From Amphiscolops sp. MND2022 (Eukaryota): DNA of 64,000 bases. The notes below the pieces were generated by a model that saw only the letters and a list, made by a program, of their open reading frames with translations, did not search any database and was not told the origin of the DNA. The DNA lies in assembly GCA_964187785.1 (NCBI GenBank), contig OZ076409.1, positions 51,090,001-51,154,000 on the forward strand, read 5' to 3'. Each line of letters begins with the position of its first letter. Within the stretch, counting starts at the first letter, position 1. A program made the position numbers and the translations under genes. Of the stretch, positions 14,428 to 52,999 are shown piece by piece.

Positions 14428-16781
14428 ATAATAAAACGCTGATTGCTCTATAGTAGTATATGTGCGAGCTGATCAGGTGGGGGGGGTGGAAGACCCACAT
14501 GTTTTAACATAGGCTATAGCGAGCCGAGAGCCGAGAAGGGTCTTCCACCCCCTAACAAGCTTGGGCTAATTTTTGCTCAATTCTGATTGGCTGACGACTC
14601 GTCTTGGGTTTTTCGTGCTCGATTCTGATTGGCTGACGACTCGAGTCGTGTACGATTCTGACGACTCAAAGGTATTGAGCCGAGTGATTGTCAATGTATA
14701 AAGATGTGTTCAATGTATAAAGATAGGGAATAGCTTCGGTAATGTTTTAAGGTAGGGAATAGGGTTTTTCGGCACTGTGCGACATTTTCGGCACTGTGAG
14801 ACTTTGGGTAAAAATTGAAATTTTGTTGGCCACGACCGCCGGCGGGAATAATTTTACCCGCCCCCGCAATATTTTATCCGCCTGCGGAATATTTTATCCG
14901 CCACCGCAAAAATTTATCCGCCACGGGAATAAATAATCCGCAATTCCGACTGGCTTTTCATGCTCGATTCTGATTGGCAGACGACTCGTCTCAATGTATA
15001 AAGGTATGGAAACGAGTGTCTGCTGATATATCAAGATATGCTATAGCTCCGTCAAAGTATAAAGATAGGGAAAAGTGACCAGAAATAAAAACAGCTAATA
15101 AGGTCAGCAATGTAATAAGATTGGTAATAGGGTTTTTCGGCATAGTGGGACATTTTTCGGCACTGTGAGACTTTGGGTAAAATGCAATTTTGTGAGCGCC
15201 AGGGGAATGTTTCCACCCACATTTGCAAATGTTGATCATAGTATGGAAGGTTTTTTCCGCCAGTGGGAAATTTTATCAACAGAATATGTTGAGCTAGATA
15301 CTTGACTGCTCTGTGGTGATAAAAAAATCTTTAATTGGAAAAAATTGCAATTATACTGTATAAATGAATAAATTCCACTGCTATAAAACGTAAAGAAATG
15401 TTGAATGTTGATCAGACGAGAGTGACGTTCATTTTTTAAACAATACATTGTGGTGTGGGTAAATGTAGTAAAAGGACTCTTGTCTGTTCGTACACACCCA
15501 TATTGCCAGGAATAGAACAAAGCACTGACGTCACGTCACTTTCACTTGCAAAATTCTTCCATATTTGGAAATTGGGCAACCAACGCCGCTTTCAATATAT
15601 CTCTTGTTCAATTAGTTGCAGCAAAAATTGAAATGAGTGAATGCGAATCATAACAACACGTCTTGCAGCACCCACACAACAATTCCGTGCAGCGAAATTC
15701 TGCCTTGCAGAGACTAGGTTCGAGCTTGTTATGCTTCTTTTATTTCGCTCAGCAAGTACGGAGAAATAGACAGTGGGCATTTGTCATAAACTCGTCCTTA
15801 CAATGAAAGTATTCACATGGTTAACCACTGTTCTTTCATTTGGGACCGTACAAAGAAGTCAATTATAAATTATTGAACAAGTCGTTCGTTAACAGTAACA
15901 TACAAAACCCAAGCTCAAACAAAAGTGTTTTAGGATTCGTCAACTGAGGATTAAAGAGTGACTGACAACAACCAGAATCCTGATTCCAGTCTAACAAACT
16001 AGTAAAGTGTATGCTTTGCGATGACAAATACGATAGTGCAGTGCAAGTAACAAGGTTCGTAAGAGACTGGGGTGGTGATAAATAATCAGTGTATCTTCTT
16101 TGTCTCCTGGGATGAAAACCTCATGATTGTGAGCAATTAGTCTGGTAGCTTCACGGACAATAAGTGCCAAGCGGTACAACTTGCAATTTTTGTATAGTGT
16201 GGAAAAATGTGGTAGACGTAATTTGGTCTTGACACGTTCAAGTCTCCCGCCTGGAACGATTGTAAGGCACAGTGTGAAAACATGTTGTTTGAACACAGTA
16301 GTTGAATCTGGATTTCCAATTTCCCTCAGCTGATGCTGCAATTGGGTGATGTTTTCGTTTGTACAACGAATAAGGACGCTTTTAACCATAACCACTGAAA
16401 TAAAGTGTACACAGTTAATTTTATGGATTTAAAGCCCAATTCTTGTTGACTCAAAACAGATTTATGCAATTGCATTTCTTGAAAGCATAAGTTGCACAAC
16501 GTATTAATTCTTGAATATCAAAAAATGAAAATGACACATATCGCAACAAAACTGTATCGCTACGGAAGCAACTCGATTGTTAAGCTGCTAACAGAATAAT
16601 AAAAAAAAATGCCGGAACGTTCAGTCATCATTGTCAATCTACCTTTTATGGAAGGTATGAGTCACTTTATCATAAAAGGGAGCGTAAACCTACCATAAAA
16701 GGAAAAAGTAATTACGTACTAGAGTCAGCGTTGCCTCTAAAGTATATGACAATCAATTTTTTCTCTCTGATTGTTGATAAT

Positions 16782-16931
16782 TTAAGGTTGTGACGTTGAG
16801 AAATTGGGACATTTAGAGCAAAATAATGTCCCAACGGAGCATCTCTTTTTGTGTACTGACAGGATTTGCTTAGATACTTTGGTACCACAATTGGCGCAGG
16901 CAACTTTTAGATTTCGATCAAGAGCAGGCAT
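16782..16931 (-). pseudogene. Zn-finger fragment resembling the extreme N-terminus of a Maverick pPolB ORF (left copy)
   Basis: MPALDRNLKVACANCGTKVSKQILSVHKKRCSVGTLFCSKCPNFST: CxxC..H..C / CxxC pattern, truncated. Confidence 0.5.
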
Positions 16932-17373
16932 TATAAGCAGCAAGTGTAACAAGACTCTATCTGAAAGCAAGCAACTAGATTGCAGAAAAGTGAAATGAAT
17001 AATGAATTGAAAGTGGTTGAAAACTCTGTTTATGTAATTGTTCAACCATATACGGAAGATATGAGTCATTGAACCATAAAAGGAATAGTTAGCCTTACAA
17101 AAGGAAAAAGTAATTACGCACTAGCGTCAGTGTTCCCTCTCAAGTACATGTCAATCACTTTTAATCTCCCTGAAAGTTAATTGCTCAAGTGGACCAAGTT
17201 TCCCTCAGGGGACGCCACATTGTCCGAAAAAATCACTCAAGTGGAACAAATTCCCTCAAAAGGACGCCAATACATCTGGGAAAACCTCTCAAGTGGAGTA
17301 GTTATACGACCATAAAAGATTAGTAGCGTGGGTAGCTGACAGCTGGTTACCCTTTCATCTTGCATTCCTTTAA

Positions 17374-18040
17374 TTACATTCCATAAATGGAAATTGAATA
17401 TAGTTCAAGTTTGATTGGTTGACAAAAGTAACACTCACAAGTCCAGCAACGGAATGCGTTGAAGAGCGCTTGAATGTTTGCTACATAGTAATTGTGACTG
17501 TTGTAGCGTAGCAAGCTAACAGTACCGGAATGATTCTGCAGACTCCATCTGACAAGCTCATCCACAAAATATCCGTCCACAGTGTCAACATCGTATAAAA
17601 TATTATTTATCCCTAGAGTTTCTTCCGCTGTCTGTTTATCGTTCAAGCAAACACCTTGAAAGGTTGCGGACTCAACTTTTCTTTTCTCTTTCATATAGAG
17701 ATGGAAAAAGTAACAAGTTCTCTCTTCTGACGCCAAGGATTTGAAAAAAAATTGAAATGTCACAAGTGTTTTGACTACAAGTGAGACAAATAATAAATCG
17801 TTCCTTCAAAAGATGGTCCGGTAAAAGTGCATTCCTACAACCCATTGGAATATTCTTTAGTAAAATTGCACAAACTAACATTTGTCAACTTCCAAAACTG
17901 CCATTTTGTGTTGACCATTCCACGGGGACAAGCTGTTATGTCATTTATTGAAGCAATCATTGCTTTAAAATGTTTCAAGCTGTCCCCTGTAGCCAACAGT
18001 TGCATTGTAACAATGTAACGCAACAAATCTGTATCTCTAC
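17374..18040 (-). pseudogene. Frameshifted fragment of Maverick protein-primed DNA polymerase B N-terminal region (left copy)
   Basis: Three overlapping frames give TKWQFWKLTNV / ILLKNIPMGC..LP / FQGVCL..INNILYD..LLRYNSHNYYV..FRCWTC, motifs I recognise from Maverick pPolB N-termini; no catalytic motifs present. Confidence 0.55.
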
Positions 18041-19077
18041 AGAAGCAACTTGGCAGTGAAACGGTCAACAGAATATTGAAAAAAATGGCGGGAAGTTCAG
18101 TCAAAACCTTCAATCTACCTTTTATGGAAAGTATGAGTCACTGAAGCATAAAAGGAAGTATAAACCTACTTTACCAGGAAAAATTAAATACGCAATAGCA
18201 TCTGCGTTCCCTCTAATGTACCTGTCAATCATTTTTCTTCTCTGTGAAAGTTGATTGCCCAAGTAGAACACGTTCCTTTCAAGTAGCGACGAGTAAGTCC
18301 AGGAAGACCACTCAAATGGAACAACTCCCTCAGTTTGACGTTGCGGAGCCCGAGAAAATAACTCAAGCGTAATAAAACCCCTAGGGAAGACGACACATCG
18401 TCTAGGAAAGCTACTCTTGGTGAATAATACCCATTAAAAGGACGCCGCATTGACTGCGAAAATCACTATCCAGTAAATTATCATTTTTTAACTCTAGATA
18501 GCGTGCGTAACTGACAGATGATTACACTTTTATCTTTTCTCTTCAAATATCAATTTCCAACAAAGGAATTTCTCAGAAATCACAAAATGGAAATGTTCAA
18601 ATGTCACCCCTCACGTAGCATTATCATTGTAAATTGGTAGTGGTACGACTGTTAATGATACTGTTAATAGAAAAGCGTATCATAGTCACACGCTTTCTCA
18701 CACTGATCCATTGTGAGTTGAATCAATTAGGAGTCAATAATAAACTAATTTTTTTAGTTGCATTTTACTTTACTCAAATGTTTCACATTTGTCACTTGGC
18801 TGACAAAATGGAGTATTTTTACGTTACACAATCAAGTGAATGATTGTTTATAGACCAACAAGTTGTACATCTAACGTTCAATATAAATGAGCTTTTCTTT
18901 TGTAGTGTATCAATCATGATTCATGTATCAAACTCATTGTACTTGATCAATCAATGACTATGCAGTGAAAAAAACAGATCCTGCTCACAAAGCACTCATC
19001 CACTGGATTAGCTAAAAATTCTGTTTAAGTAGAAATAATTTATTTTTTCCTTATAAAACAAAACAATAGACAACGAA

Positions 19078-19530
19078 TCACCGATTAAATAGTTGCAAAG
19101 TCCATGTACCAAAAATTTGTGCCTTCTTTTCAGCGCAGTGAAGAGTTGTTCGATGTCTGTAGGGATAGCTGGAACACAACCAGTCACAATTGAGTTCTTG
19201 AATCTTTGGACATCCATAGTCATCTAAATTTTCGACCTGCTTGCCCAGTAACGCGCTCAACATTGTGCATTTTTCCAATCCTTTTGCAAAGAATTCGGCT
19301 CTGTACTGCTTGAGACTAGTCAAAATCTTTGTAACGTCATTGTAGTCCAGGGCACCGCTTCTCCAATCAATTTTGTGCAAATTATTTGTGCACCAATGTG
19401 TTTGGAATGTTGGTTGAAAACTTGTTGGTGGTTTGAAGGAATATCCAAACACTTGTCCGTCAATAAAAACGCCCAACTCTTTCACAACATTTTTGTCTGC
19501 AAGCTCAACATCCAGCACAATCAGAGACAT
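19078..19530 (-). CDS. Maverick-type accessory protein, DEDD/DnaQ-exonuclease-like N-terminus and C-terminal Cys/His cluster (left copy)
   Basis: Intact 150 aa: IVLDVE..VKELG..FKPP..LH.IDW.SG..Y..FAKGLEK..NLDDYGCP..C..H..HCA. Confidence 0.65.
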   Translation of the reverse strand: MSLIVLDVELADKNVVKELGVFIDGQVFGYSFKPPTSFQPTFQTHWCTNNLHKIDWRSGALDYNDVTKILTSLKQYRAEFFAKGLEKCTMLSALLGKQVENLDDYGCPKIQELNCDWLCSSYPYRHRTTLHCAEKKAQIFGTWTLQLFNR

Positions 19531-20299
19531 TGTTGGAATTTTACAGAGACAAATTTGATTGGAGCTAACAATCTGGGTCACACTTGGTGTCGATCCAAAC
19601 TTTGTAAGTCAAAATGTAAATCTCTCAGCAAGCAACTTGTTTGTACGTCTATGAAATTTAAAATGAGCTGAAAATTACTACCGAAGAATTTAGTTGTCAT
19701 TCTACCATATCTGGCAATCTTTATTTGACGAAGTCTTCCCAAAAAGGAGAAGCGTCAATCTACCATATATGGAAGCGTAAATCTACCATATATGGAAACT
19801 GTAACCACGCTCTAGCTCAAGTACTCGTGAAAATATTCTCATATTGCTGAGAGATCTCTCCTTCGGGAGACCAAATGCGTACAACTGTATGGTAAAAACT
19901 TCAAAAGACGTTACCTTATATGGGAAAACCTCTCACGTAGAGCGACTGAATTTCTTCCGAGGTTCATTTTTTTTACCTTTCGTACCTCATGTATTACATT
20001 TCAAGTTAACCCATATTAGGTAACCATCAAAACATTCATAGAGCACTGTCAGAGTAATTGTTACACGGAGTCACGCGTTGCTGCCCGCAAAATCCGAACA
20101 TCACCAGGGAAGCAATACGTCCATTGATATACGGTAATATTGATTTTTTTACACTAGTGCCACTTTTTACACTCCCTTTGAGGTCTTGCGCAGAATTTTA
20201 TGCAATGAAAATTGACTACACATAAAAATTTTGTTTTTATATATGACGGTACTTACACTATTTGCATTTAAATCTGACATGGCGTAAAAGTTTTACTTT

Positions 20300-20680
20300 T
20301 AAATCTGACACGTTGCAAAAATTTCAAGTTAAAATCAGACGCGTTGTAAAATTTTCCCAAAAAAATACGACACGTTGTAAAATTTTCCCAAAAAAATACG
20401 ACACGTTGTAAAAATTCTACTTTAAAATCAGACAAGAAGTAGAAATTTTTGCTTCAAAATCTGTCTTTTTAAAACTGTATTGCAAGTGCAAAATTTGTCG
20501 TTTTTACGGAGTAAAATGGGTAAAAACTTGTCTTTTTAAAAATAAAAACGCCTTCCAAATCTGTCTTTTTAATTTTTTCATCTCGTGTAAAATGAAACAC
20601 GTTGTAAAATTTTCCCAAAAAAATACGACACGTTGTAAAATTTTTCCAAAAAAATAAGACACGTTGTAAAATTTTACTTG
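20300..20680. repeat. 31-bp-period repeats (GACACGTTGTAAAATTTT...) in the Maverick arm; mirrored at ~23040-23420
   Basis: About 7 copies of AC(A/G)CGTTG(T/C)AAAA at ~20306, 20338, 20369, 20400, 20597, 20627, 20658. Confidence 0.8.
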
Positions 20681-20710
20681 TAAAAGTGTGCATTTTAAGT
20701 TCAGTCAAAA

Positions 20711-20893
20711 ATGAGCAAGTGTTCCGACGACTTTTGTGACTTAGTAACGTGGACGATTTATACTATTGGAGCATTCTTGTTGTTCCTACTAGCCGTTGCT
20801 GCAATTGCTGCTCTCATTGGTCTATTTATTGTCATGTTGAGACTTCCTATCAACCTCTACAAGTCTCATTTCGTTGAAGAAAACATTGGTTAG
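20711..20893 (+). CDS. Small single-pass membrane protein, 60 aa (left copy)
   Basis: ATG start, long hydrophobic stretch IYTIGAFLLFLLAVAAIAALIGLFIVML; ends 1 bp from the convergent ORF. Confidence 0.5.
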   Translation: MSKCSDDFCDLVTWTIYTIGAFLLFLLAVAAIAALIGLFIVMLRLPINLYKSHFVEENIG

Positions 20894-20894
20894 T

Positions 20895-21494
20895 TTACAA
20901 AGATTTAATTTTAAAAGATACTAAATTACTATCATAATTACCGTAACCATCTAAAAAACAATCTACAATTTTTATTAGTTCTACTTCAAATTTTGTCTTT
21001 TTAACTTGTTTAATCCTGTCTGCGAAAACTGATCCACTCGTCTGTGTTGAAATTGTCTTTTGCAACGAACTCAGTAAATGTCTCTTGTATTTTTTACGCA
21101 ACAATCTCTTTTTTGCTATACTCGGCATCCTTTCAACCGTCTTGTGGTGTTGATTGAATCGTACAGCTCGTTCAACAATGTCAAACACTTGTCCACTTTT
21201 GGTAACAACCTTGCCATCGAAACGATACTTGAATAATGTATAAAGACAGTCGACCAATTGATATGTAAAACAAAAAGTGTCCAATTTTTCCATCAAGACA
21301 TTGATATCCTTCTCTGCAATGAGTAAAATGTGATATTTACAATTGGGAACGCTACACATGGAGTCATTGTGCTGAGCAACGCAATAGTCTTTGCTGACAA
21401 GATACTTTTCATAGGTGGTTGCACAAATGTATACACTTTTTCTAGAGTATAGAGAGTAAAAATTTGGAATAACTTGCATCATTACAGCAGCCAT
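20895..21494 (-). CDS. Hypothetical ~199-aa basic protein (left copy)
   Basis: Open ORF from ATG 21494; H..C....C..H cluster and KKRLLRKKYKR NLS-like patch. Confidence 0.5.
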   Translation of the reverse strand: MAAVMMQVIPNFYSLYSRKSVYICATTYEKYLVSKDYCVAQHNDSMCSVPNCKYHILLIAEKDINVLMEKLDTFCFTYQLVDCLYTLFKYRFDGKVVTKSGQVFDIVERAVRFNQHHKTVERMPSIAKKRLLRKKYKRHLLSSLQKTISTQTSGSVFADRIKQVKKTKFEVELIKIVDCFLDGYGNYDSNLVSFKIKSL

Positions 21495-21762
21495 CTGAAC
21501 GTTGTGTCTTTGTTGTACAAATTGAATCTGAAAAGATGGAATTGTTACCTTGAAAGGAATAATCACAAGACTATTCCATTTTAGGAAATGTTTACGCCTC
21601 GTTTTCCATAAAAGGAAGTCATTTCCTTTTAAGGTATTCCATTTTAGAAATGTTTACGCATCGTTTTCCCATAAAAGGAAGTCATTTCCTTCTAAGGTAA
21701 TGTTCATTCTGTCATTCAAAATTATTGCGTCATTTTTCCTTTTTAGGTAATGAGTGCACTTC

Positions 21763-21962
21763 NNNNNNNNNNNNNNNNNNNNNNNNNNNNNNNNNNNNNN
21801 NNNNNNNNNNNNNNNNNNNNNNNNNNNNNNNNNNNNNNNNNNNNNNNNNNNNNNNNNNNNNNNNNNNNNNNNNNNNNNNNNNNNNNNNNNNNNNNNNNNN
21901 NNNNNNNNNNNNNNNNNNNNNNNNNNNNNNNNNNNNNNNNNNNNNNNNNNNNNNNNNNNNNN
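21763..21962. other. Assembly gap (200 N), probably a negative gap
   Basis: 21586-21762 is repeated almost exactly at 21963-22139, i.e. overlapping contig ends; the true spacer is probably ~210 bp. Confidence 0.8.
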
Positions 21963-22227
21963 AAATGTTTACGCCTCGTTTTCCATAAAAGGAAGTCATT
22001 TCCTTTTAAGGTATTCCATTTTAGGAAATGTTTACGCATCGTTTTCCATAAAAGGAAGTCATTTCCTTCTAAGGTAATGTTCATTCTGTCATTCAAAATT
22101 ATTGCGTCATTTTTCCTTTTTAGGTAATGAGTGCACTTCCTTTTATGGAAGTCACGTGATTATTCCTTTCAAGGTAACAATTCCATCTTTTCAGATTCAT
22201 TTTGTACAACAAAGACACAACGTTCAG

Positions 22228-22827
22228 ATGGCTGCTGTAATGATGCAAGTTATTCCAAATTTTTACTCTCTATACTCTAGAAAAAGTGTATACATTTGTG
22301 CAACCACCTATGAAAAGTATCTTGTCAGCAAAGACTATTGCGTTGCTCAGCACAATGACTCCATGTGTAGCGTTCCCAATTGTAAATATCACATTTTACT
22401 CATTGCAGAGAAGGATATCAATGTCTTGATGGAAAAATTGGACACTTTTTGTTTTACATATCAATTGGTCGACTGTCTTTATACATTATTCAAGTATCGT
22501 TTCGATGGCAAGGTTGTTACCAAAAGTGGACAAGTGTTTGACATTGTTGAACGAGCTGTACGATTCAATCAACACCACAAGACGGTTGAAAGGATGCCGA
22601 GTATAGCAAAAAAGAGATTGTTGCGTAAAAAATACAAGAGACATTTACTGAGTTCGTTGCAAAAGACAATTTCAACACAGACGAGTGGATCAGTTTTCGC
22701 AGACAGGATTAAACAAGTTAAAAAGACAAAATTTGAAGTAGAACTAATAAAAATTGTAGATTGTTTTTTAGATGGTTACGGTAATTATGATAGTAATTTA
22801 GTATCTTTTAAAATTAAATCTTTGTAA
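22228..22827 (+). CDS. Hypothetical ~199-aa basic protein (right copy)
   Basis: Mirror of 20895-21494; frame open further upstream into the spacer. Confidence 0.5.
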   Translation: MAAVMMQVIPNFYSLYSRKSVYICATTYEKYLVSKDYCVAQHNDSMCSVPNCKYHILLIAEKDINVLMEKLDTFCFTYQLVDCLYTLFKYRFDGKVVTKSGQVFDIVERAVRFNQHHKTVERMPSIAKKRLLRKKYKRHLLSSLQKTISTQTSGSVFADRIKQVKKTKFEVELIKIVDCFLDGYGNYDSNLVSFKIKSL

Positions 22828-22828
22828 A

Positions 22829-23011
22829 CTAACCAATGTTTTCTTCAACGAAATGAGACTTGTAGAGGTTGATAGGAAGTCTCAACATGACAATAAATAG
22901 ACCAATGAGAGCAGCAATTGCAGCAACGGCTAGTAGGAACAACAAGAATGCTCCAATAGTATAAATCGTCCACGTTACTAAGTCACAAAAGTCGTCGGAA
23001 CACTTGCTCAT
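22829..23011 (-). CDS. Small membrane protein, 60 aa (right copy)
   Basis: Identical translation to 20711-20893. Confidence 0.5.
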   Translation of the reverse strand: MSKCSDDFCDLVTWTIYTIGAFLLFLLAVAAIAALIGLFIVMLRLPINLYKSHFVEENIG

Positions 23012-24190
23012 TTTTGACTGAACTTAAAATGCACACTTTTACAAGTAAAATTTTACAACGTGTCTTATTTTTTTGGAAAAATTTTACAACGTGTCGTATT
23101 TTTTTGGGAAAATTTTACAACGTGTTTCATTTTACACGAGATGAAAAATTAAAAAGACAGATTTGGAAGGCGTTTTTATTTTTAAAAAGACAAGTTTTTA
23201 CCCATTTTACTCCGTAAAAACGACAAATTTTGCACTTGCAATACAGTTTTAAAAAGACAGATTTTGAAGCAAAAATTTTTACTTCTTGTCTGATTTTAAA
23301 GTAGAATTTTTACAACGTGTCGTATTTTTTTGGGAAAATTTTACAACGTGTCGTATTTTTTTGGGAAAATTTTACAACGCGTCTGATTTTAACTTGAAAT
23401 TTTTGCAACGTGTCAGATTTAAAAGTAAAACTTTTACGCCATGTCAGATTTAAATGCAAATAGTGTAAGTACCGTCATATATAAAAACAAAATTTTTATG
23501 TGTAGTCAATTTTCATTGCATAAAATTCTGCGCAAGACCTCAAAGGGAGTGTAAAAAGTGGCACTAGTGTAAAAAAATCAATATTACCGTATATCAATGG
23601 ACGTATTGCTTCCCTGGTGATGTTCGGATTTTGCGGGCAGCAACGCGTGACTCCGTGTAACAATTACTCTGACAGTGCTCTATGAATGTTTTGATGGTTA
23701 CCTAATATGGGTTAACTTGAAATGTAATACATGAGGTACGAAAGGTAAAAAAAATGAACCTCGGAAGAAATTCAGTCGCTCTACGTGAGAGGTTTTCCCA
23801 TATAAGGTAACGTCTTTTGAAGTTTTTACCATACAGTTGTACGCATTTGGTCTCCCGAAGGAGAGATCTCTCAGCAATATGAGAATATTTTCACGAGTAC
23901 TTGAGCTAGAGCGTGGTTACAGTTTCCATATATGGTAGATTTACGCTTCCATATATGGTAGATTGACGCTTCTCCTTTTTGGAAAGACTTCGTCAAATAA
24001 AGATTGCCAGATATGGTAGAATGACAACTAAATTCTTCGGTAGTAATTTTCAGCTCATTTTAAATTTCATAGACGTACAAACAAGTTGCTTGCTGAGAGA
24101 TTTACATTTTGACTTACAAAGTTTGGATCGACACCAAGTGTGACCCAGATTGTTAGCTCCAATCAAATTTGTCTCTGTAAAATTCCAACA

Positions 24191-24643
24191 ATGTCTCTGA
24201 TTGTGCTGGATGTTGAGCTTGCAGACAAAAATGTTGTGAAAGAGTTGGGCGTTTTTATTGACGGACAAGTGTTTGGATATTCCTTCAAACCACCAACAAG
24301 TTTTCAACCAACATTCCAAACACATTGGTGCACAAATAATTTGCACAAAATTGATTGGAGAAGCGGTGCCCTGGACTACAATGACGTTACAAAGATTTTG
24401 ACTAGTCTCAAGCAGTACAGAGCCGAATTCTTTGCAAAAGGATTGGAAAAATGCACAATGTTGAGCGCGTTACTGGGCAAGCAGGTCGAAAATTTAGATG
24501 ACTATGGATGTCCAAAGATTCAAGAACTCAATTGTGACTGGTTGTGTTCCAGCTATCCCTACAGACATCGAACAACTCTTCACTGCGCTGAAAAGAAGGC
24601 ACAAATTTTTGGTACATGGACTTTGCAACTATTTAATCGGTGA
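24191..24643 (+). CDS. Maverick-type DEDD-like accessory protein (right copy)
   Basis: Identical translation to 19078-19530. Confidence 0.65.
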   Translation: MSLIVLDVELADKNVVKELGVFIDGQVFGYSFKPPTSFQPTFQTHWCTNNLHKIDWRSGALDYNDVTKILTSLKQYRAEFFAKGLEKCTMLSALLGKQVENLDDYGCPKIQELNCDWLCSSYPYRHRTTLHCAEKKAQIFGTWTLQLFNR

Positions 24644-25679
24644 TTCGTTGTCTATTGTTTTGTTTTATAAGGAAAAAATAAATTATTTCTACTTAAACAG
24701 AATTTTTAGCTAATCCAGTGGATGAGTGCTTTGTGAGCAGGATCTGTTTTTTTTACTGCATAGTCATTGATTGATCAAGTACAATGAGTTTGATACATGA
24801 ATCATGATTGATACACTACAAAAGAAAAGCTCATTTATATTGAACGTTAGATGTACAACTTGTTGGTCTATAAACAATCATTCACTTGATTGTGTAACGT
24901 AAAAATACTCCATTTTGTCAGCCAAGTGACAAATGTGAAACATTTGAGTAAAGTAAAATGCAACTAAAAAAATTAGTTTATTATTGACTCCTAATTGATT
25001 CAACTCACAATGGATCAGTGTGAGAAAGCGTGTGACTATGATACGCTTTTCTATTAACAGTATCATTAACACTCGTACCACTACCAATTTACAATGATAA
25101 TGCTACGTGAGGGGTGACATTTGAACATTTCCATTTTGTGATTTCTGAGAAATTCCTTTGTTGGAAATTGATATTTGAAGAGAAAAGATAAAAGTGTAAT
25201 CATCTGTCAGTTACGCACGCTATCTAGCGTTAAAAAAATGATAATTTACTGGATAGTGATTTTCGCAGTCAATGCGGCGTCTTTTTAATGGGTATTATTC
25301 ACCAAGAGTAGCTTTCCTAGACGATGTGTCGTCTTCCCTAGGGGTTTTATTACGCTTGAGTTATTTTCTCGGGCTCCGCAACGTCAAACTGAGGGAGTTG
25401 TTCCACTTGAGTGGTCTTCCTGGACTTACTCGTCGCTACTTGAAAGGAACGTGTTCTACTTGGGCAATCAACTTTCACAGAGAAGAAAAATGATTGACAG
25501 GTACATTAGAGGGAACGCAGATGCTATTGCGTATTTAATTTTTCCTGGTAAAGTAGGTTTATACTTCTTTTTATGGTTCAGTGACTCATACTTTCCATAA
25601 AAGGTAGATTGAAGGTTTTGACTGAACTTCCCGCCATTTTTTTCAATATTCTGTTGACCGTTTCACTGCCAAGTTGCTT

Positions 25680-26348
25680 CTGTAGAGATACAGATTTGTT
25701 GCGTTACATTGTTACAATGCAACTGTTGGCTACAGGGGACAGCTTGAAACATTTTAAAGCAATGATTGCTTCAATAAATGACATAACAGCTTGTCCCCGT
25801 GGAATGGTCAACACAAAATGGCAGTTTTGGAAGTTGACAAATGTTAGTTTGTGCAATTTTACTAAAGAATATTCCAATGGGTTGTAGGAATGCACTTTTA
25901 CCGGACCATCTTTTGAAGGAACGATTTATTATTTGTCTCACTTGTAGTCAAAACACTTGTGACATTTCAATTTTTTTTCAAATCCTTGGCGTCAGAAGAG
26001 AGAACTTGTTACTTTTTCCATCTCTATATGAAAGAGAAAAGAAAAGTTGAGTCCGCAACCTTTCAAGGTGTTTGCTTGAACGATAAACAGACAGCGGAAG
26101 AAACTCTAGGGATAAATAATATTTTATACGATGTTGACACTGTGGACGGATATTTTGTGGATGAGCTTGTCAGATGGAGTCTGCAGAATCATTCCGGTAC
26201 TGTTAGCTTGCTACGCTACAACAGTCACAATTACTATGTAGCAAACATTCAAGCGCTCTTCAACGCATTCCGTTGCTGGACTTGTGAGTGTTACTTTTGT
26301 CAACCAATCAAACTTGAACTATATTCAATTTCCATTTATGGAATGTAA
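25680..26348 (+). pseudogene. pPolB N-terminal fragment (right copy)
   Basis: Mirror of 17374-18040 with the same frameshifts. Confidence 0.55.
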
Positions 26349-26790
26349 TTAAAGGAATGCAAGATGAAAGGGTAACCAGCTGTCAGCTACCCACGCTACT
26401 AATCTTTTATGGTCGTATAACTACTCCACTTGAGAGGTTTTCCCAGATGTATTGGCGTCCTTTTGAGGGAATTTGTTCCATTTGAGTGATTTTTTCGGAC
26501 AATGTGGCGTCCCCTGAGGGAAACTTGGTCCACTTGAGCAATTAACTTTCAGGGAGATTAAAAGTGATTGACATGTACTTGAGAGGGAACACTGACGCTA
26601 GTGCGTAATTACTTTTTCCTTTTGTAAGGCTAACTATTCCTTTTATGGTTCAATGACTCATATCTTCCGTATAAGGTTGAACAATTACATAAACAGAGTT
26701 TTCAACCACTTTCAATTCATTATTCATTTCACTTTTCTGCAATCTAGTTGCTTGCTTTCAGATAGAGTCTTGTTACACTTGCTGCTTATA

Positions 26791-26940
26791 ATGCCTGCTC
26801 TTGATCGAAATCTAAAAGTTGCCTGCGTCAATTGTGGTACCAAAGTATCTAAGCAAATCCTGTCAGTACACAAAAAGAGATGCTCCGTTGGGACATTATT
26901 TTGCTCTAAATGTCCCAATTTCTCAACGTCACAACCTTAA
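26791..26940 (+). pseudogene. pPolB-type N-terminal Zn-finger fragment (right copy)
   Basis: Mirror of 16782-16931. Confidence 0.5.
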
Positions 26941-29759
26941 ATTATCAACATTCAGAGAGAAAAAATTGATTGTCATATACTTTAGAGGCAACGCTGACTC
27001 TAGTACGTAATTACTTTTTCCTTTTAAGGTAGGTTTACGCTCCCTTTTATGATAAAGTGACTCATACCTTCCATAAAAGGTAGATTGACAATGATGACTG
27101 AACGTTCCGGCATTTTTTTTTATTATTCTGTTAGCAGCTTAACAATCGAGTTGCTTCCGTAGCGATACAGTTTTGTTGCGATATGTGTCATTTTCATTTT
27201 TTGATATTCAAGAATTAATACGTTGTGCAACTTATGCTTTCAAGAAATGCAATTGCATAAATCTGTTTTGAGTCAACAAGAATTGGGCTTTAAATCCATA
27301 AAATTAACTGTGTACACTTTATTTCAGTGGTTACGGTTAAAAGCGTCCTTATTCGTTGTACAAACGAAAACATCACCCAATTGCAGCATCAGCTGAGGGA
27401 AATTGGAAATCCAGATTCAACTACTGTGTTCAAACAACATGTTTTCACACTGTGCCTTACAATCGTTCCAGGCGGGAGACTTGAACGTGTCAAGACCAAA
27501 TTACGTCTACCACATTTTTCCACACTATACAAAAATTGCAAGTTGTACCGCTTGGCACTTATTGTCCGTGAAGCTACCAGACTAATTGCTCACAATCATG
27601 AGGTTTTCATCCCAGGAGACAAAGAAGATACACTGATTATTTATCACCACCCCAGTCTCTTACGAACCTTGTTACTTGCACTGCACTATCGTATTTGTCA
27701 TCGCAAAGCATACACTTTACTAGTTTGTTAGACTGGAATCAGGATTCTGGTTGTTGTCAGTCACTCTTTAATCCTCAGTTGACGAATCCTAAAACACTTT
27801 TGTTTGAGCTTGGGTTTTGTATGTTACTGTTAACGAACGACTTGTTCAATAATTTATAATTGACTTCTTTGTACGGCGTTTTGGTGTCGGTGACTGACGA
27901 GAAACGAAAAATCGATGCGACTACAGACTAGAGTGTTGTAGCTGAGACAACAATCTTGCTGGTCAACAGATCGTACATTAATAATTTATGGATGGGAGCA
28001 GGCAAGTGACTGAAAGTTTTTCAGTGTGCAACTGTACAAGAGTTAACACTGCGAACACATGCAGTATGCTGAATTGAGAACTATTACTACATTTCCGTCA
28101 ACTATTGTGGTGTTTGTATATTAAAAAAAATCTTGAAACGGACACCAATTCACTATATATTGCCTAAACCGAGAGAGAATTGTGTGATTGTACATGATCC
28201 CAAATGAAAGAACAGTGGTTAACCATGTGAATACTTTCATTGTAAGGACGAGTTTATGACAAATGCCCACTGTCTATTTCTCCGTACTTGCTGAGCGAAA
28301 TAAAAGAAGCATAACAAGCTCGAACCTAGTCTCTGCAAGGCAGAATTTCGCTGCACGGAATTGTTGTGTGGGTGCTGCAAGACGTGTTGTTATGATTCGC
28401 ATTCACTCATTTCAATTTTTGCTGCAACTAATTGAACAAGAGATATATTGAAAGCGGCGGTGGTTGCCCAATTTCCAAATATGGAAGAATTTTGCAAGTG
28501 AAAGTGACGTGACGTCAGTGCTTTGCTCTATTCCTGGCAATATGGGTGTGTACGAACAGACAAGAGTCCTTTTACTACATTTACCCACACCACAATGTAT
28601 TGTTTAAAAAATGAACGTCACTCTCGTCTGATCAACATTCAACATTTCTTTACGTTTTATAGCAGTGGAATTTATTCATTTATACAGTATAATTGCAATT
28701 TTTTCCAATTAAAGATTTTTTTATCACCACAGAGCAGTCAAGTATCTAGCTCAACATATTCTGTTGATAAAATTTCCCACTGGCGGAAAAAACCTTCCAT
28801 ACTATGATCAACATTTGCAAATGTGGGTGGAAACATTCCCCTGGCGCTCACAAAATTGCATTTTACCCAAAGTCTCACAGTGCCGAAAAATGTCCCACTA
28901 TGCCGAAAAACCCTATTACCAATCTTATTACATTGCTGACCTTATTAGCTGTTTTTATTTCTGGTCACTTTTCCCTATCTTTATACTTTGACGGAGCTAT
29001 AGCATATCTTGATATATCAGCAGACACTCGTTTCCATACCTTTATACATTGAGACGAGTCGTCTGCCAATCAGAATCGAGCATGAAAAGCCAGTCGGAAT
29101 TGCGGATTATTTATTCCCGTGGCGGATAAATTTTTGCGGTGGCGGATAAAATATTCCGCAGGCGGATAAAATATTGCGGGGGCGGGTAAAATTATTCCCG
29201 CCGGCGGTCGTGGCCAACAAAATTTCAATTTTTACCCAAAGTCTCACAGTGCCGAAAATGTCGCACAGTGCCGAAAAACCCTATTCCCTACCTTAAAACA
29301 TTACCGAAGCTATTCCCTATCTTTATACATTGAACACATCTTTATACATTGACAATCACTCGGCTCAATACCTTTGAGTCGTCAGAATCGTACACGACTC
29401 GAGTCGTCAGCCAATCAGAATCGAGCACGAAAAACCCAAGACGAGTCGTCAGCCAATCAGAATTGAGCAAAAATTAGCCCAAGCTTGTTAGGGGGTGGAA
29501 GACCCTTCTCGGCTCTCGGCTCGCTATAGCCTATGTTAAAACATGTGGGTCTTCCACCCCCCCCCCCCCCACCTGATCAGCTCGCACATATACTACTCTC
29601 TATTAACAGATATCGCCAGTCATTGAACAAAAAATTATGAAAAACGTTGAAAATGTTTTGGTTTTTTGGCAGTCATCATTACACTTGCAATAAGCAAGTG
29701 TTATGGGAAAGTGCAGGTGCTTTTTTTCCGCGCGACAACTCTCTCGTTTCAGACCGCAA

Positions 29760-30740: not shown

Positions 30741-31254
30741 AAATTTGTCTGAAAACTTGTTGGATAATGTAGCTTCAATGGATAAGGTAGCTCTTGAAAA
30801 CCTTTCAAAACTACGAAAATAGGGACCGTTTGATCAAGAATAGTCAGTTTGTGTCGTTTTTGGAGCCATTTTAGAGTTTTTATTCAATAAACTTGAGCTT
30901 GCTCGCCAGAAAGCTTTCCAGATAGTTTTTATGCTTCATTTTCGAAATCGGTAACCAGGGTGTTTGATTATCTCGAAACGTTGAAAAAGAATACAGAAAA
31001 TGCCTAAAAACGTGCTAGTTTAGATGTTTTTTTTAGACTAGTTCAGAGTTGACTAGTTGTATGAGCACACTGGATGACTACTTGATACTTTGTGGATTTT
31101 TTTGGATGATCTAATTTCTAAGAGTCCAAAATTTTCACAAAAACAGTCCAAAAACTAAAAACGATCTGAAAATGGAAAAACTCTAAAACTTTCAAATGTT
31201 TTGATTCTTTTTTGAAACTTTCTTCAACAAATCTTCTCACATATTTCTTTAACG

Positions 31255-31660
31255 TCCAAAGTCGGCGCTATACCTAAAGCTCAAAAAACGCGAAGTTCAC
31301 AAAATTGTAAAAAGGGGGACCCTTTCGACTTTTTGAAAATCCAGTTTGTTGCAAAGTATCAAAAAATTTGAAGGGAGAGCCTTTGGCGACAAAAAATCGA
31401 AAAACAAATTCGAACAGTGCCGAAAACAATTCAAAGGGGGACCCTGTAGTCCTGTCCGGTTTTGTATCTTTCGTTAAAAATTGAGTACACGAAAGCGGGA
31501 CCCTTTGCAATAACTTAGATTAATTTCCTCTAGCCGGTCCAGTAGTTTAGTAGTTCTGTAAAAAAAAGTGTCCACTACGCATATATTCTGTTGTCTGACG
31601 AAAAAAAAACTTGCCACTGTAATAGTTGGGCTCATTTTGATAAAATGCGCTGACTAAAAC
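31255..31660 (-). mobile_element. HINE-like element (duplicated at ~35127-35530)
   Basis: AAGTCGGCGCTATACCTAAAGCTC at one end and GCGCTGACTAA at the other, matching family termini. Confidence 0.5.
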
Positions 31661-31929
31661 AGAACTCTGGTTAGTTCATTTCTTCTTCGTGGAACTTTCT
31701 GGACTGAAGTAGAGAGGAAGGCAACAGAACTGTTCGTGGATATTGAGCAACTTAGTTACAACATCTTGATCAAGGCAGAATTTGTTTTTTTTTCAACGTT
31801 TAAACCAGTTTTCTCTAAGTGATGTCTAGGTTGAAATTTGATGCTACCTTTTTGTGGATGACACGCGGTTTTGTTTGTACTGAATTGATTTGTCCATTTT
31901 CGTTATCAATTGTTGTTTTTCAAAACAAC

Positions 31930-34620
31930 TGTAACGGCAAGCAGTCGCCGTTGCTTCTTCGTCCGTGAAGACGGTGGAACCTATGACATGGATATTTGCC
32001 GTGACAGGCGCCCAATAGCTACAAGTCCATTTTGTCTCCCGAAGTTAAACGTGTCCTGTAAAACTCAGAGTCTGAATCTTTAGAGTTTTGAGGGTTGATT
32101 GTTTGCTTTGCAGTTGAGGCTACTAACTTTAACATCCTTTTCTGGTTTTCAGTTAATATTTTCTCCAGGTCTGACATCATTTCCTCATTTCCTGCCTAAG
32201 TGACGTTCTGATCTCATTTAGATTTCCGGTGTGAAGTAGATCTGCTAGATATTTCTGGTGAAGTAGATATTTCCGGTGAAGAAGATATTCTGTATCGGGA
32301 ACTGGATTTTCGAAAGTGTTGTTTCCAAATGGAGAAGTTTCAAATTCACCAGAAGCTGGTTGTTCAACAGCTTTCCTTTTCTGACTTCGGTTTATCATTT
32401 GGTTAGAAAACAGAGCGTTTTCAAAGACTTTTGAATTTTTCGACGGAATCGGTATGATCTGACAACAGAGCAGAAACAACTGAACTTCTATTTTTTTAAA
32501 AAAAAACCTTTTTGTACTTTCCTATCACCATTTGTTTCTCACCTGAAAATTCCTAGATATCGAATTATCAAACTTGTTCCAGACAATTACCGATTGACTC
32601 ATATTATCATATTATTTCAGTCCGACGTCGATAAATCCGCTATGAAAGTTCCTAGTGGCGTCAGCCATTCGTCATACTTGTTGAGAAGATTTCCAATCAG
32701 CTGAGTATACTTCCTGTCTCAGCGTCAGAAGGGCGGCCAAACTGAAAGTGGTTAAAAAATCAACGATGAAAGTACACTAGGCGTGAGAAATTACCCAGCG
32801 AAATACTTAGAAAGCTAGATGGCTTGCAAAACTGATTGCATGACTAACGTGGAGGACAATTGTTTCAAAAAAAAGGCATAATGAACTCTTAGAGGAAAGA
32901 CGACACTAAAAAAAGGGTTACAGAATTAACAATAACTTCACTTAAATTTATCAGTTTAGAAGTTAATTAAATATTCACTTTCATATTTTTTGCGTAAAGC
33001 ATCAACTGCATTTTCTTTCGTAAAAACCACAACAATAATTCACATTGAATAGAAACGAAAATTTTCACGTCCGGTAATACTTTGAATCATCAAATCCTAG
33101 AACAACACCTTAGAACGATAACTAACACAACGACAATCCATGTTTCCGATATACAGCATTAGCGTTATCAGTAATAAAAAGCTTCCAATCTATGGATAGT
33201 GATAACAGTACATTTCAGTTAAATTGATCAATGTTGACCTTCACTGTTCGCTACATATTAATACTAAGGTAGCATGCAGTAAATTATTGGCCAGGATGCG
33301 AGATTTTAGGCTAGAGCTATGTTTAGCTTTTAATTCTGCTTCCCATGATTCACATGGTGTTGTTACTGGCCTAATTAGGTCATCTATCGAAAGTTATTGT
33401 AGGCAGTGCGAAAACTTCAACGGAACAACTCTCAAATACCTTATGAATTGGTTGGAAGAAAAGGCAAATGGAACATTGATGGAAACTTTTAGAAAATGGA
33501 AATCAATTTCATTCTTTGTCTTACAACACAGTCACCTAAAATATTTTGAAAACAAGCAGAACCATTGTACATTTCTCATGAACCTAACTAGAAAAAATAA
33601 GGGAACTTCCAGTTTTTGAAAGTAGCACTCAGGTGGAGCCAAGCCTCCAAATTCGATATAGCGTTGAGGTGTAAGTTAAGATTAGCTGTAGGTAAACACA
33701 GCTTGAGAGAGACCTTCTGTCAAGCCTTGGAAATCATCCCAATGCTCTAACTAGTGTTGTCACCAAAGCCGTTTCTTTTGGTTTGAGCGCAGGTGCATCT
33801 TTCTAATTATGACGTCAGTAGTTTGATTAGCAAGCGAAGGATAGTATTGGATTTGTTATAATTCGCGACAAGAATGTTACAAATATTTGTTTAGATTGAA
33901 TACTTGCAATCATATTAATTTCAATAGTCATCCCACTCAGTCCTATTATGCTATAATTTTACCGTTTGTTTGATTATTTCAGGTCAAATGTTGCCCGCGA
34001 AATTGTGGATGAAGTTGGTTCAGTGTTGCAGGTTGGAAAATATACAGTTGTGTTTTCCTTCCGAACATGTTTTTGTAATGTAATCTTTGGATTTATTTGA
34101 ATGTTAACCTAGAAGAGGACGGGAAAGTTGGATGATTTACGCCGGAAAGTTGATGAAACGATTCACTAAGCAACGTTTTATGTCAAGCTTACAAAAATCT
34201 TTATCGTTTTGAAAAAATGTTCCTCCGGTCTATTTAGCTGGGTTGTAAAACACTTAGCGCTGAGTTAAAATTTTCCGAGTTTGCCTTGCCCGAGCCCTGC
34301 TACTCTTGGATGTATTCTGTGTTGGCAGTATGTACACAAGTCGGGAGCGGACTGTGGCATCAGGCAATTACAACAATCAGTCTTTGCGAGACTAGCTTTT
34401 AACTAATTGGATCTTCGCACGAACTTCACGTTTTTGCCAACTGATTTTTCGTGTTCTGCTCCGTAATGATAGCGATTCTTGTCCTCTACGATTCGCGGAA
34501 CAGGTCTTTGAGCACTCTTTGCGGAGTATGACCAATACTTGTAGTTCCTCTGATTCGATTTATTTTTTGAGTCATGTCTCAAATTTTGATGACTTGATGA
34601 TGTGACAGGGGATTGTTACA
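31930..34620 (-). mobile_element. LTR (probably 3' LTR) of a gypsy family related to the 40189-55476 element
   Basis: TGTAAC...GTTACA ends; purine tract GGGGAGGAG just upstream on the minus strand; contains the homologous gag start MINRSQKRKAV..SGEFETS and the shared motif CTAGGAATTTT(C/T)AGGTGAG. Confidence 0.6.
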
Positions 34621-34808
34621 AACTCCTCCCCGAGGTCTTTGCTGTCTGTCTTTGACCAATTATACCAAATATTATTAAAAACCATTATACTGCAATTGTT
34701 TCCGTTCTTTCTTGAGCGGGGTAAAATAAAACCTCTTTCCGGTCTCCTGACACGTTTTGAGACCGGAGGCGGTCGTGATTTTGAAACTGTGATTAGGTAA
34801 AAGTTCGT

Positions 34809-37490
34809 CCAGGGTGTTTGATTATCTCGAAACGTTGAAAAAGATTACAGAGAATGCCTAAAAACGTACTTTCTAGTTTTTTTGTGCTGGTTTAGATGTT
34901 TTTTTTAGACTAGTTCAGAGTTGACTAGTTGTATGAGCACACTGGATGACTACTTGATATTTTGTGGATTTTTTTGGATGATCTAATTTCTAAGAGTCCA
35001 AAATTTTCACAAAAACAGTCCAAAAACTAAAAACGATCTGAAAATGGAAAAACTCTAAAACTTTCAAATGTTTTGATTCTTTTTTGAAACTTTCTTCAAC
35101 AAATCTTCTCACATATTTCTTTAACGTCCAAAGTCGGCGCTATACCTAAAGCTCAAAAAACGCGAAGTTTACAAAATTGTAAAAAGGGGGACCCTTTCGA
35201 CTTTTTGAAAATCCAGTTTGTTGCAAAGTATCAAAAAATTTGAAGGGAGAGCCTTTGGCGACAAAAAATCGAAAAACAAATTCGAACAGTGCCGAAAACA
35301 ATTCAAAGGGGGACCCTGTAGTCCTGTCCGGTTTTGTATCTTTCGTTAAAAATTGAGTACACGAAAGCGGGACCCTTTGCAATAACTTAGATTAATTTCC
35401 TCTAGCCGGTCCAGTAGTTTAGTAGTTCTGTAAAAAAAAGTGTCCACTACGCATATATTCTGTTGTCTGACGAAAAAAAAACTTGCCACTGTAATAGTTG
35501 GGCTCATTTTGATAAAATGCGCTGACTAAAACAGAACTCTGGTTAGTTCATTTCTTCTTCGTGGAACTTTCTGGACTGAAGTAGAGAGGAAGGTAACAGA
35601 ACTGTTCGTGGATATTGAGCAACTTAGTTACAACATCTTGATCAAGGCAGAATTTGTTTTTTTTCAACGTTTACACCAGTTTTCTCTAAGTGATGTCTAG
35701 GTTGAAATTTGATGCTACCTTTTTGTGGATGACACGCGGTTTTGTTTGTACTGAATTGATTTGTCCATTTTCGTTATCAATTGTTGTTTTTCAAAACAAC
35801 TGTAACGGCAAGCAGTCGCCGTTGCTTCTTCGTCCGTGAAGACGGTGGAACCTATGACATGGATATTTGCCGTGACAGGCGCCCAATAGCTACAAGTCCA
35901 TTTTGTCTCCCGCAGTTAAACGTGTCCTGTAAAACTCAGAGTCTGAATCTTTAGAGTTTTGAGGGTTGATTGTTTGCTTTGCAGTTGAGGCTACTAACTT
36001 TAACATCCTTTTCTGGTTTTCAGTTAGTATTTTCTCCAGGTCTGACATCATTTCCTCATTTCCTGCCTAAGTGACGTTCTGATCTCATTTAGATTTCCGG
36101 TGTGAAGTAGATCTGCTAGATATTTCTGGTGAAGTAGATATTTCCGGTGAAGAAGATATTCTGTATCGGGAACTGGATTTTCGAAAGTGTTGTTTCCAAA
36201 TGGAGAAGTTTCAAATTCACCAGAAGCTGGTTGTTCAACAGCTTTCCTTTTCTGACTTCGGTTTATCATTTGGTTAGAAAACAGAGCGTTTTCAAAGACT
36301 TTTGAAGTTTTCGACGGAATCGGGATGATCTGACAACAGAGCAGAAACAACTGAACTTCTATTTTTTATTAAAAAAAACTTTTTGTACATTCCTATCACC
36401 ATTTGTTTCTCACCTGAAAATTCCTAGATATCGAATTATCAAACTTGTTCCAAACAATTACCGATTGACTCATATTATCATCTTATTTCAGTCCGACGTC
36501 GATAAATCCGCTATGAAAGCTATGAAAGCTAGGTAAACACAGCTTGAGAGAGACCTTCTGTCAAGCTTTGGAAATCATCCCAATGCTCTAACTAGTGTTG
36601 TCACCAAAGCCGTTTCTTTTGGTTTGAGCGCAGGTGCATCTTTCTAATTATGACGTCAGTAGTTTGATTAGCAAGCGAAGGATAGTATTGGATTTGTTAT
36701 AATTCGCGACAAGAATGTTACAAATATTTGTTTAGATTGAATACTTGCAATCATATTAATTTCAATAGTCATCCCACTCAGTCCTATTATGCTATAATTT
36801 TACCGTTTGTTTGATTATTTCAGGTCAAATGTTGCCCGCGAAATTGTGGATGAAGTTGGTTCAGTGTTGCAGGTTGGAAAATATACAGTTGTGTTTTCCT
36901 TCCGAACATGTTTTTGTAATGTAATCTGTGGATTTATTTGAATGTTAACCTAGAAGAGGACGGGAAAGTTGGATGATTTACGCCGGAAAGTTGATGAAAC
37001 GTTTCACTAAGCAACGTTTTATGTCAAGCTTACAACAATCGTTTATCGTTTTGAAAAAATGTTCCTCCGGTCTATTTAGCTGGGTTGTAAAAAACTTGGC
37101 GCTGAGTTAAAATTTTCCGAGTTTGCCTTGCCCGAGTCCTGCTACTCTTGGATGTATTCTGTGTTGGCAGTATGTACATAAGTCGGGAGCGGACTGTGGC
37201 ATCAGGCAATTACAACAATCAGTCTTTGCGAGACTAGCTTTTAACTAATTGGATCTTCGCACGAACTTCACGTTTTTGCCGACTGATTTTTCGTGTTCTC
37301 CTCCGTAATGATAGCGATTCTTGTCCTCTACGATTCGCGGAACAGGTCTTTGAGCACACTTTGCGGAGTATGACCAATGTTTGTAGTTCCTCTGATTCGA
37401 TTGATTTTTTTAGTCATGTCTCAAATTTTGATGACTTGATGATGTGACAGGGGATTGTTACAAACTCCTCCCCGAGGTCTTTGCAGTCTG
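34809..37490. repeat. Tandem segmental duplication, copy B (lacks ~1.04 kb equivalent to ~32650-33687)
   Basis: Direct alignment by eye; deletion junction at ~36511-36531. Confidence 0.92.
35801..37462 (-). mobile_element. Duplicated, internally deleted copy of the same LTR
   Basis: Same termini within duplication copy B. Confidence 0.6.
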
Positions 37491-43406: not shown

Positions 43407-43445
43407 GATCGCCGCGCCTACGCTTTGGGGAAACGGTAGACGCGA
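43397..43445 (+). other. -1 programmed ribosomal frameshift signal (gag-pol)
   Basis: In-frame A AAA AAC immediately before the gag TAA, followed by stem CGCGCCTAC...GTAGACGCG; the -1 frame is open downstream. Confidence 0.7.
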
Positions 43446-48597: not shown

Positions 48598-48771
48598 TAC
48601 AAAAACAATCAATTGGTCAAACCGAACTGGAGTGGCAACGTAAATTTTGGTTTTTTTCACAAACTACCCTCAAGGCAGCACAATAAATCAATACAACGAA
48701 ACGCATTAGAGCAAAAATAAACTAACTACAACAAATACAACAATCAAACAGCTCAAAAGTCCATCAGTAGT

Positions 48772-52900: not shown

Positions 52901-52999
52901 AGACAAAATACGAAGGAATTGAAACTGACCTTTTTCATTTGACACTCAATCAATCGTACGATCAAATCGATTTAGAACCGTCAAGTTTCAGCAAATAAA

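Follow-up and report, generated by a model that had tools for sequence, protein, structure and literature searches.

A palindromic, non-autonomous Maverick family in Amphiscolops sp. that probably behaves like a copy-back defective genome

We describe a Maverick/Polinton element of Amphiscolops sp. MND2022 (GenBank assembly GCA_964187785.1) that is built as a giant palindrome, with two 7.1-kb arms mirrored around a short loop, and that very probably belongs to a real family of such elements mobilised in trans. It occupies positions 14452–29597 of a 64,000-nucleotide stretch of contig OZ076409.1 (C1:51090001-51154000 of the 1.07-Gb assembly), here called the window; coordinates are those of the window unless they carry a contig prefix (C). 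Taken together, our analyses suggest that this is a non-autonomous Maverick/Polinton lineage which probably works in the manner of a copy-back defective viral genome.

Results

Structure of the window element

The element begins with AGTAGT (from 14452), finishes with ACTACT (ending at 29597) and is enclosed by a 6-bp target-site duplication (TSD), CTCTAT. Self-alignment places 14452–21590 against 22134–29597 in inverted orientation at >99% identity, in two blocks (14452–15853 against 29597–28188, 99.2%; 15846–21590 against 27876–22134, 99.5%). Over 7,144 aligned bases the arms, which truly end at 21566 and 22156, show 25 substitutions relative to each other (0.3%), plus small indels, and 550–600 bases of the left and right flanks have no match to each other. 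An earlier reading of the window from its letters alone (the sequence-only reading) had claimed these termini and this TSD, unrelated flanks, inverted identity over about 7.1 kb and a central junction at 21566/22156; all were recovered, the junction at exactly these coordinates.

The right arm holds an extra 311–321 bases (27877–28187) that are absent from the left arm at 15845/15846. Because every compared fold-back arm that reaches this point carries the stretch, the difference is a deletion from the left arm, and an insertion into the right arm was rejected. With an arm difference of 0.3%, the window copy is among the youngest of the family.

A 200-N scaffold gap interrupts the loop. The sequences at 21586–21762 and 21963–22139 are the same and in direct orientation (178 columns, two single-base indels), running through unique loop sequence. 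Since these 177–178 bases repeat directly across the gap, the contigs on its two sides overlap, and the gap most likely hides nothing. The concern, raised with the original fold-back proposal, that the gap might conceal core genes or that the arms might stem from different loci or haplotypes was not borne out. By arithmetic, with the overlap removed, the element measures ~14,769 bp and its loop 212 bp. A 63-bp duplication within the loop occurs in the window copy only, among the copies compared at the centre.

A fold-back family across the genome

Genome searches, in which the centre, the end and two pieces of the arm served as queries and the best 40 candidates of each were scored, retrieved 50 loci that were mapped (51 including the window), one of which, the half beyond the gap at C11:11263700, had no match. 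At least 30 loci, the window included, show a fold-back junction; the remaining mapped loci comprise five arms cut short of the junction by a gap or contig end, 11 ordinary Mavericks, three hybrids and one truncated copy. Ten of the 30 junction loci are gap-free, and a gap or contig end interrupts the other 20, compared with none of the 11 ordinary copies. Fourteen fold-back elements have both ends at one locus (a compound locus on C3 being left out), and in 10 of these the TSD is exact and each time a different hexamer. Five combine the absence of gaps with an exact TSD: C6:5637760-5652782, C11:32288935-32304034, C785:80468-95488, C11:15029587-15044246 and C13:30695673-30711236. The nine gap-free fold-back copies with both ends are 14.5–15.6 kb long, against 13.5–21.5 kb for the 11 ordinary copies.

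Four types of junction, termed J1 (that of the window), J2, J3 and J5, were distinguished. Pattern searches of the genome gave 15 matches to J1, 13 to J3 and four to J5, with J2 at two loci, while the ordinary-centre pattern gave 132 matches, four of them at the J5 loci; by these counts, in which some elements matched twice and from which variant junctions escape, ordinary copies are ~4 times as numerous as fold-back copies. The search for further copies with the window junction and different TSDs, which the sequence-only reading had put forward as its own check, thus found them genome-wide, and a one-off rearrangement was rejected because the same junctions recur at many loci. In contigs from four sequencing runs, of which small shares were covered, the relatives present are only ~89% identical and have the ordinary centre; none of these contigs spans the fold-back junction, a result that carries no information either way.

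Several loci are more complex. Both flanks of C785:80468-95488 (L063/L064) are alike, as if the element had inserted into an older inverted repeat. C6:310581-318225 and C493:11-7532 are two halves of one element; because they have a common TSD and differ by 0.19%, contig C493 probably fits the gap at the C6 half. The compound locus C3:52625552-52652996 (L096, L097, L103, L104), with a matching TSD AACGTC and a gap inside, combines an ordinary right half with fold-back ends of J3 type and may be nested or mis-joined. C7:4672195-4688397 (L106, L098, L107), with an exact TSD GATGAT, is a non-palindromic hybrid of a fold-back arm on one side and the ordinary core-gene half on the other, either a parent type or a recombinant. 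At C2:97347637-97362786 (L072, L073; TSD CCCCTA) and from C2:87069115 onward (L108, L095, L109), ordinary copies have had their polymerase end replaced by the outer 2.7–3.3 kb of a fold-back arm.

Gene content of ordinary and fold-back copies

The ordinary Mavericks of this genome conform in ends, TSD and size to the description in PMC8097293; their terminal inverted repeats (TIRs) measure 582–613 bp, and 10 of 11 copies have an exact TSD. Their left half encodes an integrase (rve, E 3e-9), an A32-like ATPase (E 1e-6), a weak adenoviral-protease match, a small exonuclease-like gene and a 477-aa open reading frame (ORF) that is capsid-like by position and size only, library searches giving no support for capsid identity. 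The right half carries a central ORF, two further ORFs and pPolB, many relatives of which carry PF03175; the closest named relative of this pPolB is a Convolutriloba macropyga protein (65% over 45% of the region). The pPolB frame of one copy (L019:3294-7124) has a weak endonuclease match at residues 788–846, reminiscent of the VSR-bearing pPolB2 described in PMC10748475 (here and below, papers given by PMC number are cited for the sections consulted). Three ordinary copies (L013-L017, L030-L031) contain internal tandem duplications of 1.3–4 kb.

When 10 proteins of the ordinary copies (eight from the left half, two from the right) were searched by tblastn at E 1e-3, none matched the window element or the nine gap-free fold-back copies, while a control ordinary copy was matched by all 10; integrase, ATPase, protease and capsid-side genes are all without a match in these elements. 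Of pPolB, the arm retains N-terminal sequence in two shuffled pieces and, interrupted by eight stops, a C-terminal remnant; the ~740 residues between them, which include the exonuclease II and polymerase A motifs, find no match in the arm. The C-terminal remnant carries 6–10 stops in all 39 arm copies listed, which argues that the polymerase was dead before the family spread. Lacking the core genes and having one dead polymerase remnant in common, the fold-back elements must have moved in trans. The sequence-only reading had likewise held that core genes and catalytic pPolB were lost and that the element was integrated in trans as a unit, and TSDs at many sites, in elements with neither integrase nor polymerase, bear this out.

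The ends of the fold-back elements are 85–94% and the central 1.3 kb 88–96% identical to the 11 ordinary copies, while most of the arm is <80% identical to them or absent from them. Judged by these alignments, the arm represents a separate, rearranged lineage, of which only the ends and the central 1.3 kb track the ordinary copies closely. A Maverick origin and a fold-back structure, both claimed from the sequence, hold; the accompanying idea that one Maverick end was simply copied back needs amendment, because the arm does not straightforwardly reproduce the common Maverick end. The proposed alignment to coding Mavericks of the same genome gave a similarly divided answer: ends and centre are close, but the arm contains a long-dead polymerase and an exonuclease-fold gene from the other half.

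Two accessory ORFs, of 150 and 199 aa, are intact in both window arms and face outward from the centre. The 150-aa protein has 345 homologues and a predicted structure (pLDDT, the score from the predicted local distance difference test, 83) whose best PDB match has an E value of 5.6e-4, to DEDD/DnaQ exonucleases, with viral matches that include an adintovirus protein (E 6.5e-6); the predicted fold thus resembles this exonuclease family. It is ~70% identical to its ordinary counterpart, which sits in the opposite half of ordinary copies; the few changes in the ORF are roughly neutral among fold-back arms, with an uncorrected ratio of ~0.2 against ordinary copies. The 199-aa central ORF has 1,784 homologues, and the window protein has no Pfam family, no Atlas match and no relative in viral contigs; an HUH-like role, guessed from a motif, was dropped as unsupported, the AlphaFold model being unusable (pLDDT 38.5) and no family being assigned. 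A further frame of 145 codons is without a match in ordinary copies, Pfam or Atlas.

Junctions and their descent

Divergently oriented ORFs border the ordinary centre, which contains two self-complementary GTCACGTGAC motifs ~150 bp apart, plus a 15–16 bp inverted repeat. The motif is an E-box-type site. In J1 the mirrored arm is joined at the first GTCACGTGAC motif, and J2 is located at the natural 15–16 bp inverted repeat; J5 lies ~35 bp further out; in J3 the loop runs into the end of the central ORF, a gene that one arm of these elements therefore lacks. A derived AA at J1 is found in the window and at seven other places, all of them fold-back loci, which argues that a junction is passed on by descent and not formed anew in every copy. 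Within the arm tree, J2 arms form one clade (support 0.999) and so do J3 arms (0.96), while J1-AA centres stand on several branches, intermixed with J5. Both central haplotypes are found in fold-back and in ordinary copies. To judge from the junction sequences, the polymerase-dead, rearranged version of the pPolB-side half folded back at least four times, mostly at short inverted repeats of the ordinary centre. All 15 J1 matches lie on the polymerase-decayed arm; for the opposite product, in which the capsid-side half would be folded back at the J1 motifs, no match was found at ≤2 mismatches, a weak negative since other junction sites of that half were not searched and absence from an assembly counts for little.

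Divergence between the arms of one element

The two arms of an element are each other's closest relatives in nine of the 10 TSD-exact copies (0.12–2.05% apart), and the private substitutions common to the two arms of a single element number up to 55. These shared private changes are distributed over most of the arm, and their number does not follow how far the arms have diverged (Spearman 0.23, p 0.52, n=10), in a test that has little power and depends on the sisters sampled. As the sequences stand, the arms of one element are seen to have been made alike after the element lineages split. Because the shared changes are widespread and do not scale with divergence, resetting of the arms before insertion would fit better than steady conversion afterwards, weak as the test is.

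Features of the window

Table 1. Features of the fold-back element and its target site (window coordinates)
Feature	Position	Strand	Basis
Left TSD, CTCTAT	14446..14451	+	sequence
Left arm, mirrors right arm, minus 311–321 bp at 15845/15846	14452..21566	.	self-alignment
Left terminal stretch, begins (AGT)2, 85–94% to ordinary Maverick ends	14452..14944	+	comparison with ordinary copies
Decayed pPolB C-terminal remnant, left copy, interrupted by the deletion	15546..15845	-	
Two shuffled, frameshifted pPolB N-terminal remnants, left copies	16773..18002	-	
Intact 150-aa ORF, DEDD/DnaQ-like exonuclease fold (predicted), left copy	19078..19530	-	predicted structure
Intact 199-aa central ORF, conserved in Mavericks, no assigned fold, left copy	20895..21494	-	
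Fold-back junction J1, first self-complementary GTCACGTGAC motif of ordinary centre, derived AA variant	21556..21577	.	
Loop, unique spacer, including 63-bp duplication at 21572–21699	21567..21762	+	
200-N scaffold gap, adjoining contig ends overlap	21763..21962	.	
Repeat reading of loop bases 21586–21762 (contig overlap)	21963..22139	+	
Loop end and second self-complementary motif (GTCACGTGA at 22151)	22140..22160	+	
Right arm	22156..29597	.	self-alignment
Central ORF, right copy, protein identical to left copy	22228..22827	+	
DEDD-fold ORF (predicted), right copy, protein identical to left copy	24191..24643	+	
pPolB N-terminal remnants, two pieces, shuffled order, several frames	25720..26949	+	
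145-codon open frame, 97–99.5% conserved among fold-back arms; may not be a gene	27294..27731	+	
Decayed pPolB C-terminal remnant, eight stops in main frame	27887..28497	+	
Right terminal stretch, finishing in (ACT)2	29103..29597	-	
Right TSD, CTCTAT	29598..29603	+	sequence

Elsewhere in the window, a Gypsy-like long terminal repeat (LTR) retrotransposon spans 40188–54300, with direct repeats of ~695 bp at 40188–40881 and 53606–54300 (97%), a strong base skew and long opposite-strand frames at 48772–51595; its frames at 43670–48412 we take, from their motifs, to be protease, reverse transcriptase, RNase H and integrase-like. Around or inside this retroelement sit two further inverted repeat pairs, 37548–40195 / 57249–59869 (2.6 kb, 95%; each arm with an acidic frame of 200–260 codons) and 41190–42371 / 54304–55476 (1.2 kb, 97%). 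A second 200-N gap lies at 56931–57130, direct duplications of 1.7 kb and 0.96 kb (98%) at 30955–37490, an array of a partly self-complementary 29-bp unit at 769–986, and a minus-strand frame of 264 codons, coiled-coil-like by eye, at 61445–62239.

Discussion

Origin of the fold-back elements

The fold-back elements are best explained, and probably correctly, as copy-back defective genomes that were formed and re-templated during protein-primed replication. A helper polymerase would drive protein-primed strand-displacement replication of the element, and a new or displaced strand that had run past the centre could re-anneal through a short inverted repeat and extend back along its own arm, yielding a product of near-normal length that has a working origin at each end. 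Within an existing palindrome, this switch would keep the loop and recopy one arm from the other. A helper integrase would insert the linear duplex, after which the arms would diverge, as do the two LTRs of a retroelement. Polintons have been proposed to replicate in this protein-primed manner, via single-stranded intermediates (as cited in PMC4046053); the replication of Mavericks is deduced from gene content, and their particles are unobserved (PMC8097293).

A number of observations weigh against this proposal. All the evidence comes from one assembly, no free, replicating or packaged form was observed, and the loci retrieved, for which only top candidates were scored, included no parent combining an intact polymerase with this arm layout. 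Junction homology is slight in two types, being only a few bases at J3 and ~6 bases at J5. The TSD is mismatched in four of the 14 complete elements, and three of these four have discordant arms with no shared private sites, which points to later recombination or to mis-joins and mis-assembly. Among the TSD-exact copies, C11:15029587-15044246 has arms 2.65% apart, closer to the arm of another element than to each other, and C13:30695673-30711236 has 0–1 shared private sites; the limited power and sampling dependence of the correlation given above count on the same side.

Of the competing accounts, the strongest, though still unlikely, is that the fold-backs are chromosomal, made by host break repair at short inverted repeats, moved as units by a helper and gene-converted between their arms after insertion. 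Gene conversion is what keeps the arms of Y-chromosome palindromes alike, the short inverted repeats at the junctions are equally compatible with this account, and the chimeric copies, together with the three arm/ordinary hybrids, show that recombination among copies occurs. A fold-back made in place would, however, mirror the flank or lose the TSD, whereas 10 of the 14 complete elements have unique flanks and a TSD, and the shared private changes do not rise with divergence (16 at 0.12%, two at 2.65%).

It is also improbable, and more so, that the host retains the elements as a source of long hairpin RNA silencing the Maverick family. A transcript across the centre would fold strongly (z = -21 for 301 bases over a gap-free centre, computed as DNA), and the ends and central 1.3 kb are similar enough to ordinary copies (85–97%) to suit such a role. 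Yet the intact genes are oriented away from the centre, so that their own transcripts would not fold back and a hairpin would need read-through across the centre, the route by which the sequence-only reading had suggested silencing of the family; most of the arm is <80% identical to the 11 ordinary copies compared or absent from them, and the fold-back copies are scattered and of different ages while ordinary copies are still ~4 times more numerous.

An artefact of assembly or library, through mirrored reads, amplification chimeras or mis-joined contigs, is very improbable: the breaks at 20 of 30 junction loci against none of 11 ordinary copies and the four mismatched TSDs would be expected of it, but not the five gap-free copies with exact and different TSDs, arms 0.6–2.7% apart with private indels, junctions common to several chromosomes and including a derived variant, or the C6 and C493 halves that carry one TSD and differ by 0.19% on different contigs. 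Least credible of all is an ordinary Maverick with unusually long TIRs and its core genes inside the gap, which sits at the element centre as this would require; hidden core genes were rejected because the contig ends overlap across unique loop sequence and the nine gap-free fold-back copies are devoid of any core gene.

The copy-back reading can be carried further, tentatively, to endogenised defective-interfering genomes of a polintovirus. The elements might then be a satellite lineage of free palindromes, kept at ~15 kb for packaging in helper capsids, with ends and central control region refreshed by recombination with the helper, and regenerated repeatedly at the short inverted repeats of the helper's central divergent promoter. 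The near-normal length would hint at packaging, and the homogenised arms would bear indirectly on replication as a free molecule by a helper polymerase. If true, animal Mavericks would have left in these elements a fossil trace of a phase in which they were free, replicated by strand displacement and were selected for size.

Comparison with known systems

Mavericks/Polintons were compared through Barreat and Katzourakis 2021 (PMC8097293) and Arkhipova and Yushenova 2019 (PMC6431247). Like Mavericks, which have termini of the form (AGT)2//(ACT)2 or (AG)3//(CT)3 (PMC8097293), the window element has (AGT)2//(ACT)2 ends and a 6-bp TSD, its length lies within their 12.7–24.6 kb, and it descends in sequence from ordinary copies with integrase, A32-like ATPase, a weak adenoviral-protease match and pPolB. 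It differs in its inverted repeats, 7.1 kb against TIRs of 46–1,447 bp in intact vertebrate Mavericks (PMC8097293). Unlike autonomous Mavericks, of which it shares the termini and TSD, it departs in TIR length and has no integrase, ATPase, protease or capsid-side gene, its polymerase consists of dead remnants, and its multicopy spread was in trans. It has what a non-autonomous derivative should have, namely sequence from coding Mavericks, many copies with TSDs of their own and no transposition genes. Fold-back elements are probably under-counted, because assemblies break at them (20 of 30 loci here) and because searches that need pPolB and integrase or that limit TIR length, such as one with a maximum of 2.5 kb (PMC11131425), miss them.

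The Foldback transposons (FB of Drosophila, named in PMC6431247) are similar in their very long inverted arms, non-autonomy and proneness to rearrangement; they differ in their ends and TSD length, and FB arms are short tandem repeats whereas those described here are decayed viral genes. No palindromic, fold-back or long-TIR Polinton was found by title and abstract in a search of the literature outside subscription papers and Repbase, and none is described in the consulted sections of PMC8097293, PMC6431247, PMC11131425, PMC10748475, PMC11414722, PMC3014272, PMC4028283, PMC4046053 and PMC1864894. The architecture itself is perhaps on record already. Non-autonomous Polintons, including a zebrafish family with TIRs of several kb, were reportedly described by Kapitonov and Jurka in 2006, and would resemble the present elements in their non-autonomy, Polinton ends and TSD. 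To our knowledge, that work described neither their parents and junction sites nor any repeated origin or homogenisation of arms; the mapped junctions, the several origins and the resetting of arms appear to be the new part.

A copy-back family predicts free palindromic or hairpin DNA with the mapped junctions, and selection on length, and its arm-to-arm divergence offers a clock for single insertions. The closest parallels are the copy-back or snap-back defective viral genomes, the mini-adenovirus genomes derived from inverted repeats, and the palindromes and hairpins that derive from pGKL1, a linear plasmid of yeast, the adenovirus and pGKL1 cases involving protein-primed replication. As in these, the element carries an inverted second copy of one end across a short unique centre, probably made by a template switch, and has two origins and depends on a helper. 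Those genomes are laboratory or episomal, whereas the Amphiscolops elements are integrated in the germ line, heritable, and of several ages and origins.

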